Positions 4,233 to 16,431 of a stretch of 25,145 nucleotides of DNA are shown here, piece by piece. Source of the DNA: a virus. Taxonomy: Duplodnaviria > Heunggongvirae > Uroviricota > Caudoviricetes. The translations under genes and the position numbers were made by a program. The notes beneath the pieces were generated by a model. That model did not search any database and had not been told where the DNA came from. It was given only the letters and a program-made list of their open reading frames with translations. Every line of letters begins with the position of its first letter. The stretch's first letter is position 1. The stretch lies in IMG/VR virus record IMGVR_UViG_3300027836_000006. One strand, given 5' to 3'.

Positions 4233-4481
4233 ATGGCAATGAAAGAACAACAAAGACAAGTTTACCGCTCAATGCAAGGCAAAGAAGTTGACATGGGCAA
4301 ACTAGTTATGCAAAACGAAATGACTATGGCAGTGGGCAATGTAAAGGTTAATGCTCGCGGAGACGAATTAGGCCCAGGTGGCAAAATTATCAAAAAGCGT
4401 GAAGATACCCTGCGTGAGGTTGCTCCAAAATCAGCACCTCAAAAGAATGTGTCAGACATGGACCCTGAAGGTAAAGAATGA
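4233..4481 (+). CDS. Conserved phage hypothetical protein, 82 aa (NARGDELGPGGKII)
   Basis: Strong SD GAGGAG; ATGA-coupled to the GroES-like gene. Confidence 0.8.
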   Translation: MAMKEQQRQVYRSMQGKEVDMGKLVMQNEMTMAVGNVKVNARGDELGPGGKIIKKREDTLREVAPKSAPQKNVSDMDPEGKE

Positions 4482-4873
4482 AAGCTCAAGCAAGTAAACT
4501 TAGACCAATTCAAGCGCATATCTTAGTTAGAGATATGAATTTTGGAGAGCAAAAGTCAGCAGGCGGAATTGTAATACGTAGCGACGACGGCAAATCAGAA
4601 GGAGTTAAGCCCCGATGGTGCCGTGTATTTGCTGTTGGCCCAGAACAAAAAGATGTCAAAGCTGGCGAGTGGATCTTAGTAGAGCACGGCCGTTGGACTC
4701 GCGGTTTAGAAGTCGAAGAAGACGATGGCACTAAATTTACCATTTGGCGTGTTGATAACACTGGCATTCTAATGTCATCAGATGAAAAGCCGGCGGGTCT
4801 TGAATTTGGAGTGTTTACTACTGCGGCACACGGTTCAGTACACAGTCCCGAAGACTTTGTTCATATGAGATAG
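4478..4873 (+). CDS. groES: GroES-like co-chaperonin
   Basis: LRPIQAHILVR, mobile loop KSAGGIVI, VFAVGP, DVKAGEWILV match the Cpn10 pattern. Confidence 0.8.
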   Translation: MKAQASKLRPIQAHILVRDMNFGEQKSAGGIVIRSDDGKSEGVKPRWCRVFAVGPEQKDVKAGEWILVEHGRWTRGLEVEEDDGTKFTIWRVDNTGILMSSDEKPAGLEFGVFTTAAHGSVHSPEDFVHMR

Positions 4874-6904: not shown

Positions 6905-6931
6905 AAAAAAGGACCCGAAGGTCCTTTTTTT
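6905..6931. terminator. Bidirectional intrinsic terminator
   Basis: AAAAAAGGACC-CGAA-GGTCCTTTTTTT between convergent genes; reads as a cUUCGg tetraloop on the minus strand. Confidence 0.92.
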
Positions 6932-7652
6932 ATGAGTCGCCGTATATTGCTAGTATCTCCTTAACAGCATTATGACGTTCAATATCTCTATGGTCAAATT
7001 CAACTATATCAATATGTTTAGTTTGTCTATTTGCGAGTAGGCCGCAAAAATTAATCAAGCCATTATCGTTTACTCGGTCGGCTTGTGCTAAGTCTCCTGT
7101 AACTACCATCTTACTATTTTCACCCAGGCGTGTTAATAACATCTTCATCTGGTTGACCGTAGCATTTTGCATTTCGTCTGCAATAATGTATGCGTTTTTA
7201 AACGTGCGGCCGCGCATATAGGCCAATGGGCTTATTTCAATAACACCTTCCTCCAGCATTTTTGCTATGTCTTTTGTTTGATAGTACTCTCCTAAAACAT
7301 CAAAAATAGGTCTTGTCCATGGTGCCATCTTTTCATTTAGCGTGCCTGGCAAAAATCCTAAATCTTCATCTACGGAAACGGCGGGTCTGGTAACGACAAT
7401 CTTGTCTACGATTCCTTCTTGAAACAACTTAATTCCGTGCTGAACTGCCAGCATGGTTTTGCCCGTGCCTGCTGGCCCAATAGCAAATACAATACTTTTA
7501 GTATCATCTTGGAGTTTTTGTATGTATGTTTGTTGATTCTCATTACGAGGGTACAAACTCACACGTTGCTTCTTTTGAGGAAGGTATGGTTGAAAATCAA
7601 TTACTTTAACTTCTGATGTAAAGCGTTTTTTCACTCTTGTGTTTTTACTCAT
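6930..7652 (-). CDS. phoH: PhoH-family ATPase
   Basis: GPAGTGKT, TRPAV, LGFLPG, LAYMRGRTF, DEMQN, TGDLAQAD, RH motifs; SD AGGAG. Confidence 0.95.
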   Translation of the reverse strand: MSKNTRVKKRFTSEVKVIDFQPYLPQKKQRVSLYPRNENQQTYIQKLQDDTKSIVFAIGPAGTGKTMLAVQHGIKLFQEGIVDKIVVTRPAVSVDEDLGFLPGTLNEKMAPWTRPIFDVLGEYYQTKDIAKMLEEGVIEISPLAYMRGRTFKNAYIIADEMQNATVNQMKMLLTRLGENSKMVVTGDLAQADRVNDNGLINFCGLLANRQTKHIDIVEFDHRDIERHNAVKEILAIYGDS

Positions 7653-7662
7653 CTAAGTTATG

Positions 7663-7724
7663 CTCCTACTCTGGTTAGAAAGTAGGACTTGTAGCGACCG
7701 CCTCGATAACTACAGAGGTCCTAC
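7663..7724 (-). promoter_or_regulatory. Structured 5' leader of phoH with two mutually exclusive stems
   Basis: GUAGGAC/GUCCUAC (7724-7718/7688-7682) encloses UGUAG/CUACA and CGA/UCG. The alternative stem UCCUACU/AGUAGGA (7687-7681/7670-7664) covers the SD. Confidence 0.6.
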
Positions 7725-7729
7725 ACTAT

Positions 7730-7735
7730 TATTTA
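7730..7735 (-). promoter_or_regulatory. Putative late promoter TAAATA for phoH
   Basis: Minus strand gtTAAATAatagtg, immediately 5' of the structured leader. Confidence 0.5.
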
Positions 7736-7782
7736 ACAGATAAACAGAATAATAAACTGTTAGCTTATGATTTCAACCAAGC

Positions 7783-7788
7783 TAAATA
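7783..7788 (+). promoter_or_regulatory. Putative late promoter TAAATA
   Basis: gcTAAATAagtata, 25 nt before ATG 7814, divergent from phoH. Confidence 0.55.
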
Positions 7789-7813
7789 AGTATAATGAAC
7801 TCTGGAAGATAAT

Positions 7814-8413
7814 ATGTACGATATTTTAGACGTGATACGCAACATAGACGATTTGTACGAAAATAACACCAGTTTAGCCATACTCAAGGATTTTGAACGT
7901 GTGTTAGACGAAATGGACATTTACGTTTATGATAACTGGGAAGACGGTGAACTAGCCTACGGTCCGCAAGTGGACCGTCATTGGATCACGGCTGGCTTTA
8001 TGTGGCCTGCTAATAAGATGCCAGACCCAAGCGCAGGCAAGCGATTAATGGATTTAGGTTGTAAAATCAAATACGAAAAATCGCATTTCATTGAGCCCCG
8101 CAAAATTAAATCGCCGGATGACTATCGCCCTGGTACTAAAAAAGGTAAATTGGATAGAAATCCAATTTGGATTGTTGAAATCGCAATGCCTAAAAAAGTA
8201 GCATTTGATATGTACAAAGGTTACATGGATAAGATGAAAGCAGAGAATCAAGAAGTTGATAATTCTAAGACAGGCGGACAAGCAACCGCGCCTGCCGCTA
8301 TGCCGGGCATGGCTGCTCCAGGTGCTATGCCTGCTCCAGGTGCTATGCCTCCGCCAGTAGGTGGCGGTGCTCCAATGGCTCCTCCGACTGGTGCTCCGGC
8401 GGCAACAATCTAA
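7814..8413 (+). CDS. Conserved phage hypothetical protein, 199 aa, with Pro/Ala/Met/Gly-rich tail
   Basis: Globular N-terminus (DFERVLDEMDIYVYDNWEDGEL...MPDP); low-complexity C-terminus. Confidence 0.85.
   Translation: MYDILDVIRNIDDLYENNTSLAILKDFERVLDEMDIYVYDNWEDGELAYGPQVDRHWITAGFMWPANKMPDPSAGKRLMDLGCKIKYEKSHFIEPRKIKSPDDYRPGTKKGKLDRNPIWIVEIAMPKKVAFDMYKGYMDKMKAENQEVDNSKTGGQATAPAAMPGMAAPGAMPAPGAMPPPVGGGAPMAPPTGAPAATI
8315..8350 (+). repeat. 18-bp tandem duplication gctccaggtgctatgcct x2 (APGAMP)
   Basis: Exact direct repeat at 8315-8332 and 8333-8350. Confidence 0.9.
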
Positions 8414-8415
8414 GG

Positions 8416-9153
8416 ATGACTATGATTAACGAAAGTTTAAGGGCAGGCGACTTACGAGGCTTTGTTAAAAAAGTTGTAGAAATTGATAACTTTAAAAGCA
8501 AGATAGGTGACGATGAGGACATCGTTACAATGGCCTTTACAGTTGACCATGAAGACCCTGCTAAAGATTTAGAAAACTTTATTGAAATGGGTTTTGACTT
8601 TGTACTAGACGCCGATGTAAGTCCAGGCGAATTAGACGATGGTACATATAAAGTATATGTAGAAATAGAAAGAAGTCGTCATGTTCCGGATCAAATTAAA
8701 GAAATTTTTGACGGCGTAGCAAAGATTACCGGTATCAATGATTTTAGATTTCGATATTTTAAAAACTTTAAAAGCGTAGACGCAACTGAAGAAAATTTAA
8801 CATCTGAAATCCCACTGGATAAAGACGCATACAAAATTAAAACAGAACGCAGTAATTTAGATAATTTTACTGAATTTTTTAATAAGAGTTTTGCCGAAGA
8901 AATAAAATTGTTAGACGAGTCGATTACATTTCAAAGAGTGTTTAGTGGACCTGTAACATTTGAAATTTTAAATAGTGGGCCACGTCAGGCAGTTTATGAA
9001 GGCGTTAAAGGTCCCATTGTGTTAGAAGGCAAAGACATGGCCGAAGTAATGTTTTTAACTAAAATAATTGGCAACTATAATATCACTAAAATTGGTGATA
9101 CATTTATATTTGAAAACAGCAATTGGGCTGTAGCACTTAAAAGGAAACAATAA
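8416..9153 (+). CDS. Conserved phage hypothetical protein, 245 aa
   Basis: Long ORF; FKSKIGDDEDIVT, VLDADVSPGE; TAATG-coupled to the endolysin. Confidence 0.85.
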   Translation: MTMINESLRAGDLRGFVKKVVEIDNFKSKIGDDEDIVTMAFTVDHEDPAKDLENFIEMGFDFVLDADVSPGELDDGTYKVYVEIERSRHVPDQIKEIFDGVAKITGINDFRFRYFKNFKSVDATEENLTSEIPLDKDAYKIKTERSNLDNFTEFFNKSFAEEIKLLDESITFQRVFSGPVTFEILNSGPRQAVYEGVKGPIVLEGKDMAEVMFLTKIIGNYNITKIGDTFIFENSNWAVALKRKQ

Positions 9154-9782
9154 TGAGCAAATTTGATTTTGAATTTACACTGGGTAACTTAAAAGAAATG
9201 GTTCCCGGTAACCCACATATTGATAGTTGGTACGAAGCAATATGCGAAATTTTACCTGACTACGATATTAATACTAAGCCGCGTGTTGCAGCATTCATTG
9301 CTCAATGCGCTCACGAATCTGGTGGTTTTAAATTTATTAAAGAAAATTTAAATTACAAAGCGGCAAGTCTACGTAAAGTATTTCCTAAATATTTTCCAGA
9401 TGATGCTATTGCTGCACAGTACGCAGGTAAAGGTGAAAAGATTGCTAACCGTGTATACGGTAATCGTATGGGCAATGGGCCAGAAGAATCTGGCGACGGA
9501 TACAAATATTGTGGCCGTGGACTTATTCAATTGACTGGTAAGGACAACTACACCCGTTACTCACAAAGTTTAGAAATTAGTGTAGAAGAAGCTAGCGAAC
9601 ACTTAACAACTTTCGAAGGTTGTGTACAAAGTGCCGCCTGGTTCTGGGAAGCTAACAACTTAAATCAGTGGGCTGACAAGGGCGACATCCTTACATTAAC
9701 AAAACGCATTAACGGCGGCACTATTGGACTTGAAGATCGTATCAAGCATTATAATCACGCACTTCACGTCCTAGGAGCTTAA
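9153..9782 (+). CDS. Glycoside hydrolase family 19 endolysin
   Basis: FIAQCAHESGGF, ENLNY, YCGRGLIQLTGKDNY, TKRINGG. Confidence 0.9.
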   Translation: MSKFDFEFTLGNLKEMVPGNPHIDSWYEAICEILPDYDINTKPRVAAFIAQCAHESGGFKFIKENLNYKAASLRKVFPKYFPDDAIAAQYAGKGEKIANRVYGNRMGNGPEESGDGYKYCGRGLIQLTGKDNYTRYSQSLEISVEEASEHLTTFEGCVQSAAWFWEANNLNQWADKGDILTLTKRINGGTIGLEDRIKHYNHALHVLGA

Positions 9783-11764: not shown

Positions 11765-11776
11765 AAGGAGCGGAGC

Positions 11777-11899
11777 ATGTTAGACACATTATTTTGGGTA
11801 GCAGTAGGAGCATTTGTAGGTTGGAATTTTCCACAGCCGTTTTGGGCTAAGATTATTCAAGAAAAAATCCAATCAATGATTGGTAAAAAAGGAGTATAA
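11777..11899 (+). CDS. Small membrane protein, 40 aa (not in ORF track)
   Basis: MLDTLFWVAVGAFVGWNFPQPFWAKIIQEKIQSMIGKKGV; SD AAGGAG/GGAG; fills the gap exactly. Confidence 0.75.
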   Translation: MLDTLFWVAVGAFVGWNFPQPFWAKIIQEKIQSMIGKKGV

Positions 11900-11900
11900 T

Positions 11901-12104
11901 ATGAAATTAGTATTAGCATTATTAACAAGTTTGGCACTAGTTGGCACAGCATACGCCGGTGGTGAAATGAAAGAAGTATGTACAGACAAAAAAGACAAAG
12001 CCGGTAAAGTAGTAAACGGCAAGGACGGAAAGCCTGTACAAGAATGTAAAAAAATCAAAGTACATAAGAAAGTAGAAGGCACTAAGGTTCCTGAAAAGAA
12101 ATAA
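11901..12104 (+). CDS. Secreted Lys-rich small protein, 67 aa, two Cys
   Basis: ATG 11901 with SD AGGAG; signal peptide ending AYA; track start at 11880 is unlikely. Confidence 0.75.
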   Translation: MKLVLALLTSLALVGTAYAGGEMKEVCTDKKDKAGKVVNGKDGKPVQECKKIKVHKKVEGTKVPEKK

Positions 12105-12117
12105 TTCTACCAAACTC

Positions 12118-12146
12118 TTGACAGGTTCCGCCTAGTATAGTATAAT
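12118..12146 (+). promoter_or_regulatory. Perfect sigma70 promoter TTGACA-N17-TATAAT upstream of dnaJ
   Basis: TTGACA 12118-12123, TATAAT 12141-12146. Confidence 0.85.
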
Positions 12147-12172
12147 TACTATATTAACTGGAACCTGTTTTT
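12121..12172 (+). terminator. Long imperfect hairpin plus T5 (terminator or operator) overlapping the dnaJ promoter
   Basis: ACAGGTTCC/GGAACCTGT (12121-12129/12160-12168) encloses TATAGTA-taat-TACTATA; T-run at 12168-12172. Confidence 0.5.
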
Positions 12173-12178
12173 ACGACT

Positions 12179-13033
12179 ATGACTGATTATTACCAAACCC
12201 TAGGCGTTAGCGAAAACGCTAGCCCAGATGAAATTAAAAAAGCATACCGAAGCTTGGCTAATAAACATCACCCCGACAAAGGTGGCGACCAAGCCAAATT
12301 TAAAGATATTAGTGTTGCTTATGAAAATTTAAGCGACCCCCAGAAAAAAGCCGAATATGATCAACAACGAATGTACGGAGGCGGCCCGCAAGTTAGGTTT
12401 ACATCCGGAGATCCGTTTGCCGATATGTTTGGACAAGGTGGGAATCCATTTGGAGATATATTTGGACACATGCGGGGCCAACAACGTCGAAATCGAGATT
12501 TAAATATTCAATGTCAAGTTACACTACTTGACTCATACTTAGGTAAACAACTAGAAGCAAACTATAGACTACCAAGTGGAAGAAATCAAACTGTTGTTAT
12601 TAATGTACCGCCTGGAATTAGCCACGGAGAAACTATTCGATATCAAGGACTCGGCGACGACAGTATGCCACATGCGCCTCGAGGTAACTTAAACGTAACA
12701 GTTATAGTGTTACCTGATCAAAACTTCCAACGTGTTAATGATGATTTGTATACTACAGTACACGTTAATCCTATAGAGGCTATGATTGGATGTCACAGAA
12801 CTGTTAAATTTATTACAGGCGAAGATCGAGAAATTGACATTCGGCCTGGAGTTGAAAGCGGCACTGAATATGCTAGCGCCGGTACTGGATTTAGTAATCT
12901 ACAAACTAATCGTAGAGGTAGATTTGTTATTATAATTAAAATACGAACACCAAATATAACCGATCCAGACTTAATAACACGATTGAGACAATTAGATGCT
13001 GAAATTAATCAAAGATCCCGATCCAATTCTTAA
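12179..13033 (+). CDS. dnaJ: DnaJ/CbpA-like co-chaperone (J domain + C-terminal domain, no Zn finger)
   Basis: [16 protein letters not shown] (HPD), G/F-rich linker, DnaJ_C-like [10 protein letters not shown]...GNLNV. Confidence 0.92.
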
Positions 13034-13484
13034 ACAAGAAGCAGAACAATGGGACTTTAAGAACCATGTCAATGCGGCTGTTATCGAACGAGAAATGCTA
13101 GACCTTATGCGGACTAATAACGCTATTGGCCTAGCTGGGAACCAAGTTGGACTATTACGTAGGGTGTTTGTTATGAAGTTAACAGACGGCCGTGAAATTG
13201 GTTGCTTCAATCCATGGATCATGTTTGGTGATAATGATAAAATCGAAGGCGATGAAGGTTGTTTGAGCTTTACAAATCTTTGGCTTAAGGTTAAACGACA
13301 CAATAAAATTACTGCCGCATATCTTGACAATACAGGAAAACAATGTATAATAGAACTTGAAGGCCTAGATTCTCGATGCTTCCAACACGAGTTGGATCAT
13401 TTAGATGGCATAACATTTACCGAATATGTAAGTGATTTAAAATTACAAATGGCACGGAAAAAACAAAGGAAACTAAATGGTTGA
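12996..13484 (+). CDS. def: Peptide deformylase
   Basis: [22 protein letters not shown] motifs; basic C-terminal helix. Confidence 0.93.
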
Positions 13485-15747
13485 ACCAAGCGACAATTTA
13501 CAAGCAGTATTTGAAAAAGCAATCGATACTGCTAAAAAACTACACCATGAATATCTAACAATTGAGCATTTATTGTTTGCCATGCTTATGGAGGATACCT
13601 TTAGTAAATGTTTACAAGGGTACGGTGCTGATCCAGAATCTTTAAAAAAGAATTTAGCAGATTATCTTCAACATAAATGTGCTGAAATTACAGTGGCAGA
13701 TGTAGTAGTTAAGCCACGCAAAACACAATCAGTTGAGCGTATTCTTAATCGTGCGTTTACACAAGTGCTGTTTAACGGACGTCAGCGAATTGAATCCACA
13801 GATGTATTCCTTGCCATGATGGGCGAGAAACGCAGTTGGGCTAATTTTTATATTGCTCAAGCTAACATTGACAAAGATAAATTTGCCGATTATATTAATA
13901 ATAACATTGAAGAAGACGAAGTGGAAGAACAAGATACCAATAGCGGCAAGGCTCTAGCACAATTTACAACTAATCTTAACGAAGCAGTTAAGAAAAATAA
14001 AGTTGACCCTGTTATTGGACGAATTGATGAGTTAGAAAATATTGCGTTGGCTATGGGTCGACGCAGTAAAAATAACGTTATCTTGGTCGGTGATCCCGGA
14101 GTAGGTAAAACTGCTATCGCAGAAGGACTTGCTTTTAACATTGTTAAAGGCGCAGTTCCTGACTTCTTAAAAGAATACACCGTCTTCAACCTGGATATTA
14201 GTGCTATGCTTGCTGGTAGTAAGTATCGCGGCGATTTTGAAGAACGTTTCAAAATGGTGTTGAAGGCACTTACTAAGAAAGGTAAGACTATTCTATTCAT
14301 TGACGAAGCACACATGATTAGTGGCGCAGGTTCTGCTAGTAATTCAGCTAACGATCTTGCTAACATGATGAAGCCTGCGTTGAGCAAAGGTAACATTAAA
14401 GTTGTTGCTTCAACTACATGGGAAGAATACCGTAAACACTTTGAAAAGGATCGTGCGTTGATGCGCAGGTTCCAGCGTATTACAGTCGACGAGCCTACTG
14501 TAGAAGTAACACTACAAATCCTTAAAGGTATCAAAAAATACTACGAAGGATTTCATAATGTTAAAATCAAAGACGATGCGTTACAAGCGGCTATTAAGTT
14601 GTCTGTTAAATATCAAACAGATAAAAAATTACCCGACAAAGCTATCGACTTGATTGACTTAGCGTGTAGTCGCTTTAACTTAAAGTTGGCAGACGAGCGT
14701 GTTATTACAGAACGTGAAATTCAGTTTGAACTGGCTAAAGTTGTTCAAATGCCTGAAGAAGTTATTAGCGAACAAGAAAGTGATAACTTAGCCACGTTAC
14801 AAACTAAACTTCAAGACGAAGTGTTTGGTCAAGATCTTGCTGTACAAGAAGTAGTTGACAAAATTATGGTTGCGCAAGCAGGACTTAAATCCGAAAACAA
14901 ACCTATTGGTAGTTTTGTATTCATGGGGCCAACTGGGTGTGGCAAAACTGAAACAGCTAAATCACTTGCTAAACATTTAGGTACTAAGTTGTTGCGTTTT
15001 GATATGTCAGAGTATCAAGAGAAGCACAGTATCTCTAAGCTAATTGGTAGCCCTCCAGGTTACGTTGGCTTTGAAGAAAATGCTGGGTTGTTAATCACAC
15101 AAATTCAAGAAAGTCCAAATGCTGTTTTGTTGTTTGATGAAATCGAAAAGTCGCATCCAGATGTCAGTACAATATTGTTACAAATGATGGACAATGGTTT
15201 TATTACAGGATCTAATGGTAAGAAAGCAGACTGCCGTAACTTAATCCTTATCCTAACTACTAACGCAGGCGCTAACGAAGCAGAAAAGAATGCTATTGGT
15301 TTTGGTGCCCAGGAAAAAGACTACAGCGACAAAGACCTTAAAAAGTTCTTTACACCAGAGTTCCGTAATCGGTTGGACGGTATTGTTACCTTTAACAAAC
15401 TCAGCAAGCCAACTATGGTCAAGATTGTTAATAAGTTTATCGATGAACTTAAAGAACAAGTTAAAGAAAAAGCAATTCGCATTAAAATTGATAAAGAAGC
15501 AATTGATTGGTTGATTGAAAAAGGATTTGATGCTAAGATGGGTGCTCGTCCGTTACAACGTGTTATTGACAAGGACATCAAACGTGATCTTGCTAAAATG
15601 ATGTTGTTTGGAGATTTAAAGAACGGCGGATGGTTAACTGTTAGTGTCGATAATGATAAACTACAGCTTATATCTAAACCAAAGACTGCTAAAGTGCCGC
15701 TCCTGACTATCGATACTACTGTCGAAAATGCAAACCAAGATAACTAA
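13477..15747 (+). CDS. clpA: ClpA-like Hsp100 AAA+ unfoldase
   Basis: Clp N domain (HEYLTIEHLL); two AAA modules (GDPGVGKT/IDEAH and GPTGCGKT/FDEIEK); GYVG pore loop; IGF loop; no long M-domain coiled coil. Confidence 0.9.
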   Translation: MVEPSDNLQAVFEKAIDTAKKLHHEYLTIEHLLFAMLMEDTFSKCLQGYGADPESLKKNLADYLQHKCAEITVADVVVKPRKTQSVERILNRAFTQVLFNGRQRIESTDVFLAMMGEKRSWANFYIAQANIDKDKFADYINNNIEEDEVEEQDTNSGKALAQFTTNLNEAVKKNKVDPVIGRIDELENIALAMGRRSKNNVILVGDPGVGKTAIAEGLAFNIVKGAVPDFLKEYTVFNLDISAMLAGSKYRGDFEERFKMVLKALTKKGKTILFIDEAHMISGAGSASNSANDLANMMKPALSKGNIKVVASTTWEEYRKHFEKDRALMRRFQRITVDEPTVEVTLQILKGIKKYYEGFHNVKIKDDALQAAIKLSVKYQTDKKLPDKAIDLIDLACSRFNLKLADERVITEREIQFELAKVVQMPEEVISEQESDNLATLQTKLQDEVFGQDLAVQEVVDKIMVAQAGLKSENKPIGSFVFMGPTGCGKTETAKSLAKHLGTKLLRFDMSEYQEKHSISKLIGSPPGYVGFEENAGLLITQIQESPNAVLLFDEIEKSHPDVSTILLQMMDNGFITGSNGKKADCRNLILILTTNAGANEAEKNAIGFGAQEKDYSDKDLKKFFTPEFRNRLDGIVTFNKLSKPTMVKIVNKFIDELKEQVKEKAIRIKIDKEAIDWLIEKGFDAKMGARPLQRVIDKDIKRDLAKMMLFGDLKNGGWLTVSVDNDKLQLISKPKTAKVPLLTIDTTVENANQDN

Positions 15748-16401: not shown

Positions 16402-16431
16402 TAAATACACTATCCGCAGTGGATTACTGCG
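16402..16431 (+). promoter_or_regulatory. Putative late promoter TAAATA followed by a leader hairpin
   Basis: gATAAATAcactat at 16402-16407; CGCAGT-ggatt-ACTGCG at 16415-16431; heads the 16454-onward block. Confidence 0.55.

Follow-up and report, generated by a model that had tools for sequence, protein, structure and literature searches.

Organization of the phoH Locus

The window analysed here is the whole stretch of 25,145 nucleotides of a virus assigned to the Caudoviricetes (IMG/VR record IMGVR_UViG_3300027836_000006). In this window phoH (6930..7652, minus strand) encodes a protein of 240 amino acids with a single PhoH domain (Pfam PF02562, 4.7e-74) and stands alone on the minus strand amid a run of genes on the plus strand, divergent from a virion structural gene at 7814. 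phoH is among the most widespread auxiliary genes of phages and serves as a marker of viral diversity, and we know of no function described for it in phages.

The region preceding the phoH start codon (AUG, 7652-7650) contains a series of segments able to pair with one another, all of which are given here with coordinates of the minus strand, that is, the phoH sense strand. A T4-type late-promoter-like hexamer, TAAATA (7735-7730), lies 5 nt upstream of the base of a hairpin. The 5′ arm of this hairpin, arm a (GUAGGAC, 7724-7718), resembles a Shine-Dalgarno (SD) sequence and represents the anti-anti-SD strand. The inner domain (7689..7717) consists of the internal loop CUC (7717-7715), strand b (UGUAGU, 7714-7709), the apical part AUCG-AGG-CGGU (7707-7697) and strand c (GCUACA, 7695-7690, or GGUC-G-CUACA, 7699-7690, in its longer form). 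It is followed by the shared anti-SD strand d (GUCCUAC, 7688-7682, extending to 7679 together with UUU), the loop CUAACC (7678-7673) and strand e (AGAGUAGGA, 7672-7664, or, taken to 7663, AGAGUAGGAG). Strand e contains the Shine-Dalgarno GGAG, and the SD itself reads GUAGGAG (7669-7663).

An earlier note, made from the letters of the window alone, had described this leader as a candidate two-state RNA switch, and the leader sequence, both alternative helices and both promoter-like sites indeed lie on the minus strand within 7653-7776 at the positions given there. Two further ideas were rejected. A leader peptide appears absent as no AUG is present between arm a and the phoH start (inspection by eye, in which GUG and UUG were not systematically checked). 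A likeness of c-d to the 3′ end of 16S rRNA (helix 45 plus the anti-SD tail) was abandoned as well, for the shared words pair differently and these words (GUAGG, GCGGU, CCU.CUU) are absent from other clades.

Elsewhere in the window, four further genes (4478-4873, 12996-13484, 13477-15747, and 9153-9782) encode a GroES-like co-chaperonin, a peptide deformylase, a Clp-type ATPase/protease of 756 aa and a glycoside-hydrolase-19-type endolysin, respectively. The 414 nt at 11765-12178, for which no open reading frame had been listed, contain two small ORFs behind a holin-like gene, one starting at 11778 and encoding a membrane peptide of ~40 aa, the other starting at 11902 and encoding a signal-peptide- or lipoprotein-like product of ~67 aa; both look spanin-like. 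A near-consensus TTGACA-N17-TATAAT promoter is located at ~12119-12147.

Occurrence and Conservation of the Leader Element

Relatives of the locus were found on hundreds of IMG/VR contigs encoding PhoH proteins 63-95% identical to that of the window. The first set selected by PhoH comprised 80 loci in addition to the window, three of the 80 being cut by contig ends. Every locus with upstream sequence carried the element, and 77 leaders (window included) matched it in full together with its flanks. The stretch from a to d showed a mean pairwise identity of 88% compared to 89% for codon positions 1 and 2 of phoH, whereas the controls reached 57.5% (codon position 3) and 71% (45 nt further upstream). 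In conservation the element equals codon positions 1 and 2 of the gene that it precedes. Across the readable phoH leaders of ~150 uncultured phage contigs the order was always the same, with TAAATA, 4-5 nt and then a hairpin whose 5′ arm resembles the SD region (GUAGGAC) and whose 3′ arm resembles an anti-SD (GUCCUAC).

A covariance model of State A, the fold in which a pairs with d, yielded matches in 70 of the 83 sources searched (window included), each directly upstream of phoH. It detected one site in the 25-kb window and also recovered the leaders of most of the distant relatives. A motif scan of IMG/VR likewise placed the full element directly upstream of phoH wherever the locus reached into the gene; scan matches that lacked the remainder of the motif lay in unrelated sequence and were put down to chance. 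Among 185,579 genomes of bacteria and archaea (one per species) the single true copy was found on a phage fragment. Altogether the leader was seen only in front of phoH, on hundreds of contigs of uncultured freshwater phages. With 11 copies observed versus 7.8 expected, GTAGGA shows no enrichment in the window, making a signal repeated throughout the genome unlikely.

The phage fragment (JBBALS010000393.1, 2316 bp) had been binned with a Flavobacteriales MAG, and its PhoH is 84% identical to that of the window; the binning may point weakly to the host or may be an artefact. On another contig (L150:1-1554, minus strand) the leader element is intact and the phoH frame runs on for more than 518 aa, the match to PhoH being confined to residues 6-181 (68% identity). 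This gene may represent a fusion or may carry an insertion, for example, an intein.

The earlier note had suggested looking for the leader in Rfam. The search was run and returned no matching family: with Rfam 15 no match reached the gathering score in the whole window, and a permissive scan of 7600-7830 (E up to 10) gave three spurious matches only, all with E > 4. No description of a phoH leader or a phoH riboswitch was found in the literature searched, and the omics paper on phage PA5oct reports general promoter motifs only. We conclude that the leader is a real, conserved and apparently undescribed RNA.

The closest cultured phages encode PhoH proteins at most 56% identical to that of the window. 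The PA5oct leader contains TAAATA and a 9-bp hairpin beginning with UGUAAAG, with no clear anti-SD logic. In Atu_ph07 and Phosso only (T)ATAAATA is kept and the leaders are short, and upstream of phoH in Erwinia phage EarlPhillipIV neither TAAATA nor the hairpin was found. In PA5oct (NC_071039.1, 190192-191839) the synteny is as in the window, a lone phoH being divergent from a virion structural protein gene; its upstream region reads CATAAATA, followed after 4 nt by the 9-bp hairpin (UGUAAAGAU/AUCUUUAUA). This suggests that the phage of the window is distantly related to the PA5oct jumbo-phage group.

Alternative Folds of the Leader

In State A, helix a:d (7 bp) is combined with b:c (6 bp) and AUCG:CGGU, and the SD region is free. 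State B contains the 9-bp helix d:e, by which the SD is sequestered, and strand c parks arm a. The partner of arm a is thus d in State A and c in State B. In a third conformation, State C, arm a is free and both b:c and d:e are formed, so that the SD is sequestered as well (predicted energy -19.0). The two-state layout proposed in the earlier note, with a single central strand contested by the 5′ arm and the SD, is supported by the relatives, as both helices are conserved and show compensatory changes. Helices a:d and d:e share strand d, and the leader thereby possesses mutually exclusive helices tied to the SD. The minimum free energy (MFE) fold is State B together with an a:c hairpin (GUAG/CUAC plus GACC/GGUC), which had been absent from the earlier note.

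The folding energy of the leader is unremarkable (-23.5 kcal/mol, z -1.73), with 12 of 200 shuffled sequences folding as well, and the case therefore rests on the comparison with relatives. For the 102 distinct leaders of the window's clade, energies of -21.1 ± 2.0 kcal/mol for State A and -22.3 ± 2.1 kcal/mol for State B were calculated; the window's own leader is predicted at -21.2 and -22.0, respectively. The A-minus-B difference over these 102 variants amounts to +1.15 ± 2.06 kcal/mol at 37°C, which makes the two folds nearly isoenergetic by prediction, all energies and barriers given here being nearest-neighbour predictions with an error of 1-2 kcal/mol that is as large as the A/B difference itself. 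In most of the distant clades d:e is weak and State A is the more stable fold, by 1.4-11 kcal/mol; the balanced switch is hence an elaboration within the window's clade. The near-isoenergetic switch is a feature of this clade and not of the whole family; the more general layout is a 5′ domain with two alternative partners for arm a.

The earlier note had also named temperature as a possible input. An RNA thermometer would shift the balance with temperature and open the SD in warmer water, and SD-sequestering helices with G-U pairs are typical of such elements. The predicted A-minus-B difference is, however, +1.15 kcal/mol at 37°C versus +1.30 kcal/mol at 20°C. As both folds contain similar numbers of pairs, no temperature-dependent switch is predicted, and we consider a thermometer very unlikely.

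Access to the SD is predicted to depend on arm a. Opening the SD would cost 3.5-4.5 kcal/mol in the presence of arm a and 6.7-8.2 kcal/mol in its absence (3.8 versus 8.2 kcal/mol in one comparison), and removal of arm a is thus predicted to raise the cost by 3.5-4.5 kcal/mol. When folding of a growing chain was modelled, a:c was the MFE structure of the 35-nt chain, chains of 43-60 nt adopted State A, and those of 65 nt or more State B, meaning that a conserved alternative 5′ hairpin is predicted to form before the final helix. The predicted barrier from a:c to State A is ~10.5 kcal/mol, that from State A to State C ~6.5 kcal/mol via a UUU/AGA toehold, and the step from C to B ~11 kcal/mol; nucleation of d:e would require ~4.6 kcal/mol.

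Covariation in the Competing Helices

Covariation, which the earlier note had proposed to look for among related phoH leaders, was found in a:d, in the inner stems and in d:e. Helix a:d is 98-99% paired, with compensatory changes at five of its seven pairs across clades. Within the window's clade a:d and the inner stems are 98.5% paired and show single compensatory events (GUAGAAC/GUUCUAC and GUAGGGC/GCCCUAC), and across clades the arms change together as GAAGGAC/GUCCUUC, GCAGGG/CCCUGC and GUAGGGC/GCCUUAC. The inner hairpin is exchanged for unrelated sequence in clades that keep a, d, and e. Helices P2 and P3 are 98% paired, with U-G/C-G exchanges. Two alignments were used, A2, gathered with a motif filter, and A3, fitted to the structure of the model, both of which lean towards structure. 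In the model-fitted alignment double changes occurred in 13 of the 16 pairs of a:d and the inner stems, and the 63 double-change cells counted compare with 13.8 ± 2.9 for shuffles and a maximum of 18 for slid controls, whereby the shuffle tests overstate significance since the sequences are related. Matched a/d pairs were more stable than permuted ones (-10.4 versus -8.0 kcal/mol, p = 2e-4).

Helix d:e is 96-97% paired, and none of 500 shuffles, to which the same relatedness applies, reached the observed covariation score. A U-A to A-U exchange in d:e was detected in 9-10 sequences and is accompanied there by a change of the base upstream of arm a. In clade 2 the columns common to both helices change in concert, and all three strands a, d, and e have changed jointly to GAAGGAC/GUCCUUC/GAAGGAG in a distant clade whose start codon is TTG. 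Matched d/e pairs were modestly more stable than permuted ones (-7.9 versus -7.2 kcal/mol, p = 0.006). Within the window's clade, where the element is highly conserved, d:e shows ~2-3 independent compensatory events.

The third helix, a:c, is 97.5-98.5% paired; in the window's clade it is invariant and consequently carries no covariation information. In other clades a different internal segment complements the local version of arm a, such as CCUGC for GCAGG, GCCUUAC for GUAGGGC or a second perfect GUCCUAC, so that most clades possess a decoy. Complementarity to arm a exceeded that of shuffled sequences (mean z -2.9), with p < 0.05 in 74% of the leaders. Judged by conservation and covariation together, the element is clearly beyond chance.

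These data bear on several other readings of the leader. The main rival is a plain 5′-terminal stabiliser, in which a:d would protect the mRNA from 5′-end-dependent decay and the complementarity between d and the SD would be a by-product. It agrees with the fact that what all clades share is a hairpin at a fixed distance from TAAATA, and with the dominance of State A and weakness of d:e in distant clades. A stabiliser, however, could have any sequence, whereas GUAGGRC/GYCCUAC persists even where the inner hairpin has been wholly replaced. Moreover, the extension on the SD side covaries with d (UUU/AGA versus AU/AU; GAAGGAG with CUUC), a decoy partner of arm a recurs across clades, and one leader (L231) keeps the pair at a changed position in d:e but loses that pair in a:d. 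We therefore regard stabilisation as the sole function as rather doubtful.

A small-molecule riboswitch, with the State A hairpin as aptamer and a ligand shifting A and B, would fit the anti-anti-SD/anti-SD/SD layout, which is that of translational expression platforms, and the high sequence conservation within the clade. Yet Rfam offered no match even at a cut-off of E = 10; neither the apical loop nor either linker is constant in length or sequence; the two alternative pairings account for the conserved bases; and sister clades in which a, d, and e are retained have an unrelated inner domain. Invariant unpaired nucleotides that could form a pocket were not found across clades. Because of this lack of a conserved pocket, the ligand dependence considered in the earlier note is highly improbable.

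Finally, the leader could act as a transcription attenuator or terminator, or as a palindromic operator at the DNA level. Part of the clade has a run of 3-6 U after the hairpin, and the arms form an inverted repeat beside a promoter. A scan, however, detected no terminator-like site, the combination of a G+C-rich stem and a U tract expected of a terminator being missing, and clade 2 has CAUUCCCC in place of the U run. With respect to an operator, the frequent G-U pairs and the compensatory changes point to pairing within one RNA strand, and the frequency of G-U pairs assigns the structure to the phoH sense RNA. Both variants are, in our estimation, extremely unlikely.

Promoter-Like Sites and Predicted Transcript Start

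Besides TAAATA, a consensus scan identified a sigma-70-like promoter candidate, TTGAAA-N16-TATTAT (7749..7776, minus strand), with 10 of 12 matches. Its transcript would have ~25 nt before arm a, and the TA...T pattern of its second hexamer is kept in most relatives. TAA[A/G]TA was present upstream of arm a in all 154 PhoH-selected leaders (154/154), at a distance of 2-7 nt, mostly 4-5 nt, the gap itself being variable in sequence. In the window TAAATA is also found 27-52 nt upstream of five other gene starts, which corresponds to 5 of the 14 same-strand copies compared to ~1 expected (hand estimate). PA5oct and Phosso, related cultured jumbo phages, have CATAAATA and TATAAATA, respectively, upstream of phoH.

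The five copies are located on the plus strand at 7782-7788, 1030, 10508, 16402 and 20144. One of them precedes the virion structural gene divergent from phoH, and two late-promoter-like motifs thus stand back to back in the phoH intergenic region at a distance of ~48 bp. A hairpin (CCGCAGU...ACUGCG) also follows the copy at 16402.

In T4, TATAAATA spans positions -13 to -6. By this rule we infer that the 5′ end of the RNA would coincide with the first base of arm a, and the hairpin is predicted to begin 0-2 nt from the transcript 5′ end. The earlier note had suggested that the choice between the two promoters gates translation. This is unsupported because both promoters are located upstream of arm a. 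For starts between -30 and +2 the predicted A/B balance shifts by less than 1 kcal/mol; only starts at least 4 nt inside arm a would matter, and they would close the SD instead of opening it, the predicted cost of SD opening rising from 3.5 to 6.7-7.2 kcal/mol upon truncation into arm a. An internal promoter giving rise to a shorter, translatable RNA without the sequestering arm, as in T4, was not found in the leader.

A Proposed Gate on PhoH Synthesis

With moderate confidence, we propose that the conserved phoH leader acts in cis as a translational gate specific to this gene, with five of its segments competing for pairing. In the ON state (State A), the 5′-terminal arm a would pair with the anti-SD strand d and close a long hairpin, c would be engaged in the inner stems and the SD would be free. 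In the OFF state (State B), arm a would be held by the internal decoy c, and the freed strand d would form the 9-bp helix with the SD region e. State C may be an intermediate reached from State A by strand invasion from the UUU/AGA toehold. Transcription presumably starts from TAAATA, with the RNA beginning at or beside arm a, and the nascent chain would form a:c first. Formation of a:c as the first helix would steer the chain to the OFF fold unless it is remodelled, as far as the rough predicted numbers allow. The partition between A and B would then set the output of PhoH.

Our best guess for the input that moves this partition is a factor acting on helices, candidates being the 30S subunit during initiation, RNA helicases or chaperones, and PhoH; we consider a small ligand less likely. 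In view of the strict phoH specificity of the element, feedback by PhoH is the most interesting possibility. YbeZ, a member of the PhoH family, binds YbeY, an RNase of 16S rRNA maturation (PMC5101352). PhoH2 homologs couple RNA helicase and RNase activities, and lineage-specific structured RNAs are reported to adjoin PhoH2 genes (2026 bioRxiv preprint 10.64898/2026.10.21.760802).

The earlier note had raised autoregulation, which is made somewhat more plausible by the gene-specific association and the PhoH2 preprint. The leader would then serve as operator or RNA partner, and the PhoH ATPase (or some other protein of the phage) would set its own synthesis by binding or remodelling the leader. 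The element is strictly phoH-specific across hundreds of contigs, and PhoH-family proteins are linked to RNA by the YbeZ-YbeY interaction and the PhoH2 homologs. On the other hand, no conserved single-stranded nucleotides mark a protein site, and the PhoH2-associated RNAs are long, multi-stem and bacterial, unlike a 75-nt leader. Taken together, we judge autoregulation of this kind to be unlikely. A more specific proposal, that the leader is the cis partner of the PhoH ATPase, which would recognise or unwind GUAGGAC/GUCCUAC and thereby feed back on its own translation, likens strand d to the ribosomal anti-SD tail following a hairpin; to this we assign a distinctly low probability.

Conservation like that of nonsynonymous positions and the occurrence in front of phoH only imply a tight post-transcriptional control of PhoH dosage. 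The design found in the window's clade is compact, with ~75 nt, five competing strands and two folds predicted to lie within ~1 kcal/mol. The leader may offer a handle on the function of phage phoH. If the input is PhoH or the translation machinery, it would represent an experimental entry point to PhoH function and add a phage example to the link between the PhoH family and structured RNAs. If the leader is indeed the cis partner of PhoH, it would mimic the natural RNA substrate of the protein and provide the first direct assay for phage PhoH action.

Comparison with Known Systems

The 5′-terminal stem-loops of the ompA type are mRNA stabilisers, and the phoH hairpin resembles them in its predicted location within 0-2 nt of the 5′ end. 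It differs from them in that both its arm sequences, which are complementary to the SD region, and an alternative fold are conserved.

The RNAs associated with PhoH2 are likewise structured, lineage-specific and recurrently tied to a gene of the PhoH family. Compared by description, they are ~350 nt in length and located beside bacterial PIN-PhoH genes, whereas the phoH leader measures 75 nt, lies 5′ of a gene for a phage PhoH with a single domain and overlaps the ribosome-binding site.

Sequential folding is a hallmark of the metastable 5′ hairpins of hok mRNA and of the leader of the MS2 maturation gene. As in these systems, a conserved early 5′ hairpin (a:c) competes with the final long-range helix, and predicted barriers of ~10 kcal/mol make the folding path matter. 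The phoH leader is, in contrast, much shorter, possesses neither an antisense RNA nor 3′ processing, and its kinetics are predicted ones.

In T4, genes e, soc, and 49 carry SD hairpins that depend on the transcription start site. What the phoH leader has in common with them is that it belongs to a phage with a late-promoter motif of the T4 type and that a complementary strand located upstream buries the SD. The T4 late promoter is, however, situated inside the hairpin, and the shorter late RNA is the one that can be translated, whereas TAAATA of the phoH leader lies upstream of everything and a shorter RNA is predicted to be less translatable, which is the opposite of the situation in T4.

Translational riboswitch platforms have three strands and mutually exclusive helices, and here, too, the fate of the 5′ strand decides on access to the SD. 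Unlike them, the phoH leader has neither a visible conserved ligand pocket nor an Rfam family, and its 5′ strand, located where the transcript is predicted to begin, has a decoy partner. The leader belongs to the class of SD-sequestering two-state leaders, an assignment in which its architecture is well supported.
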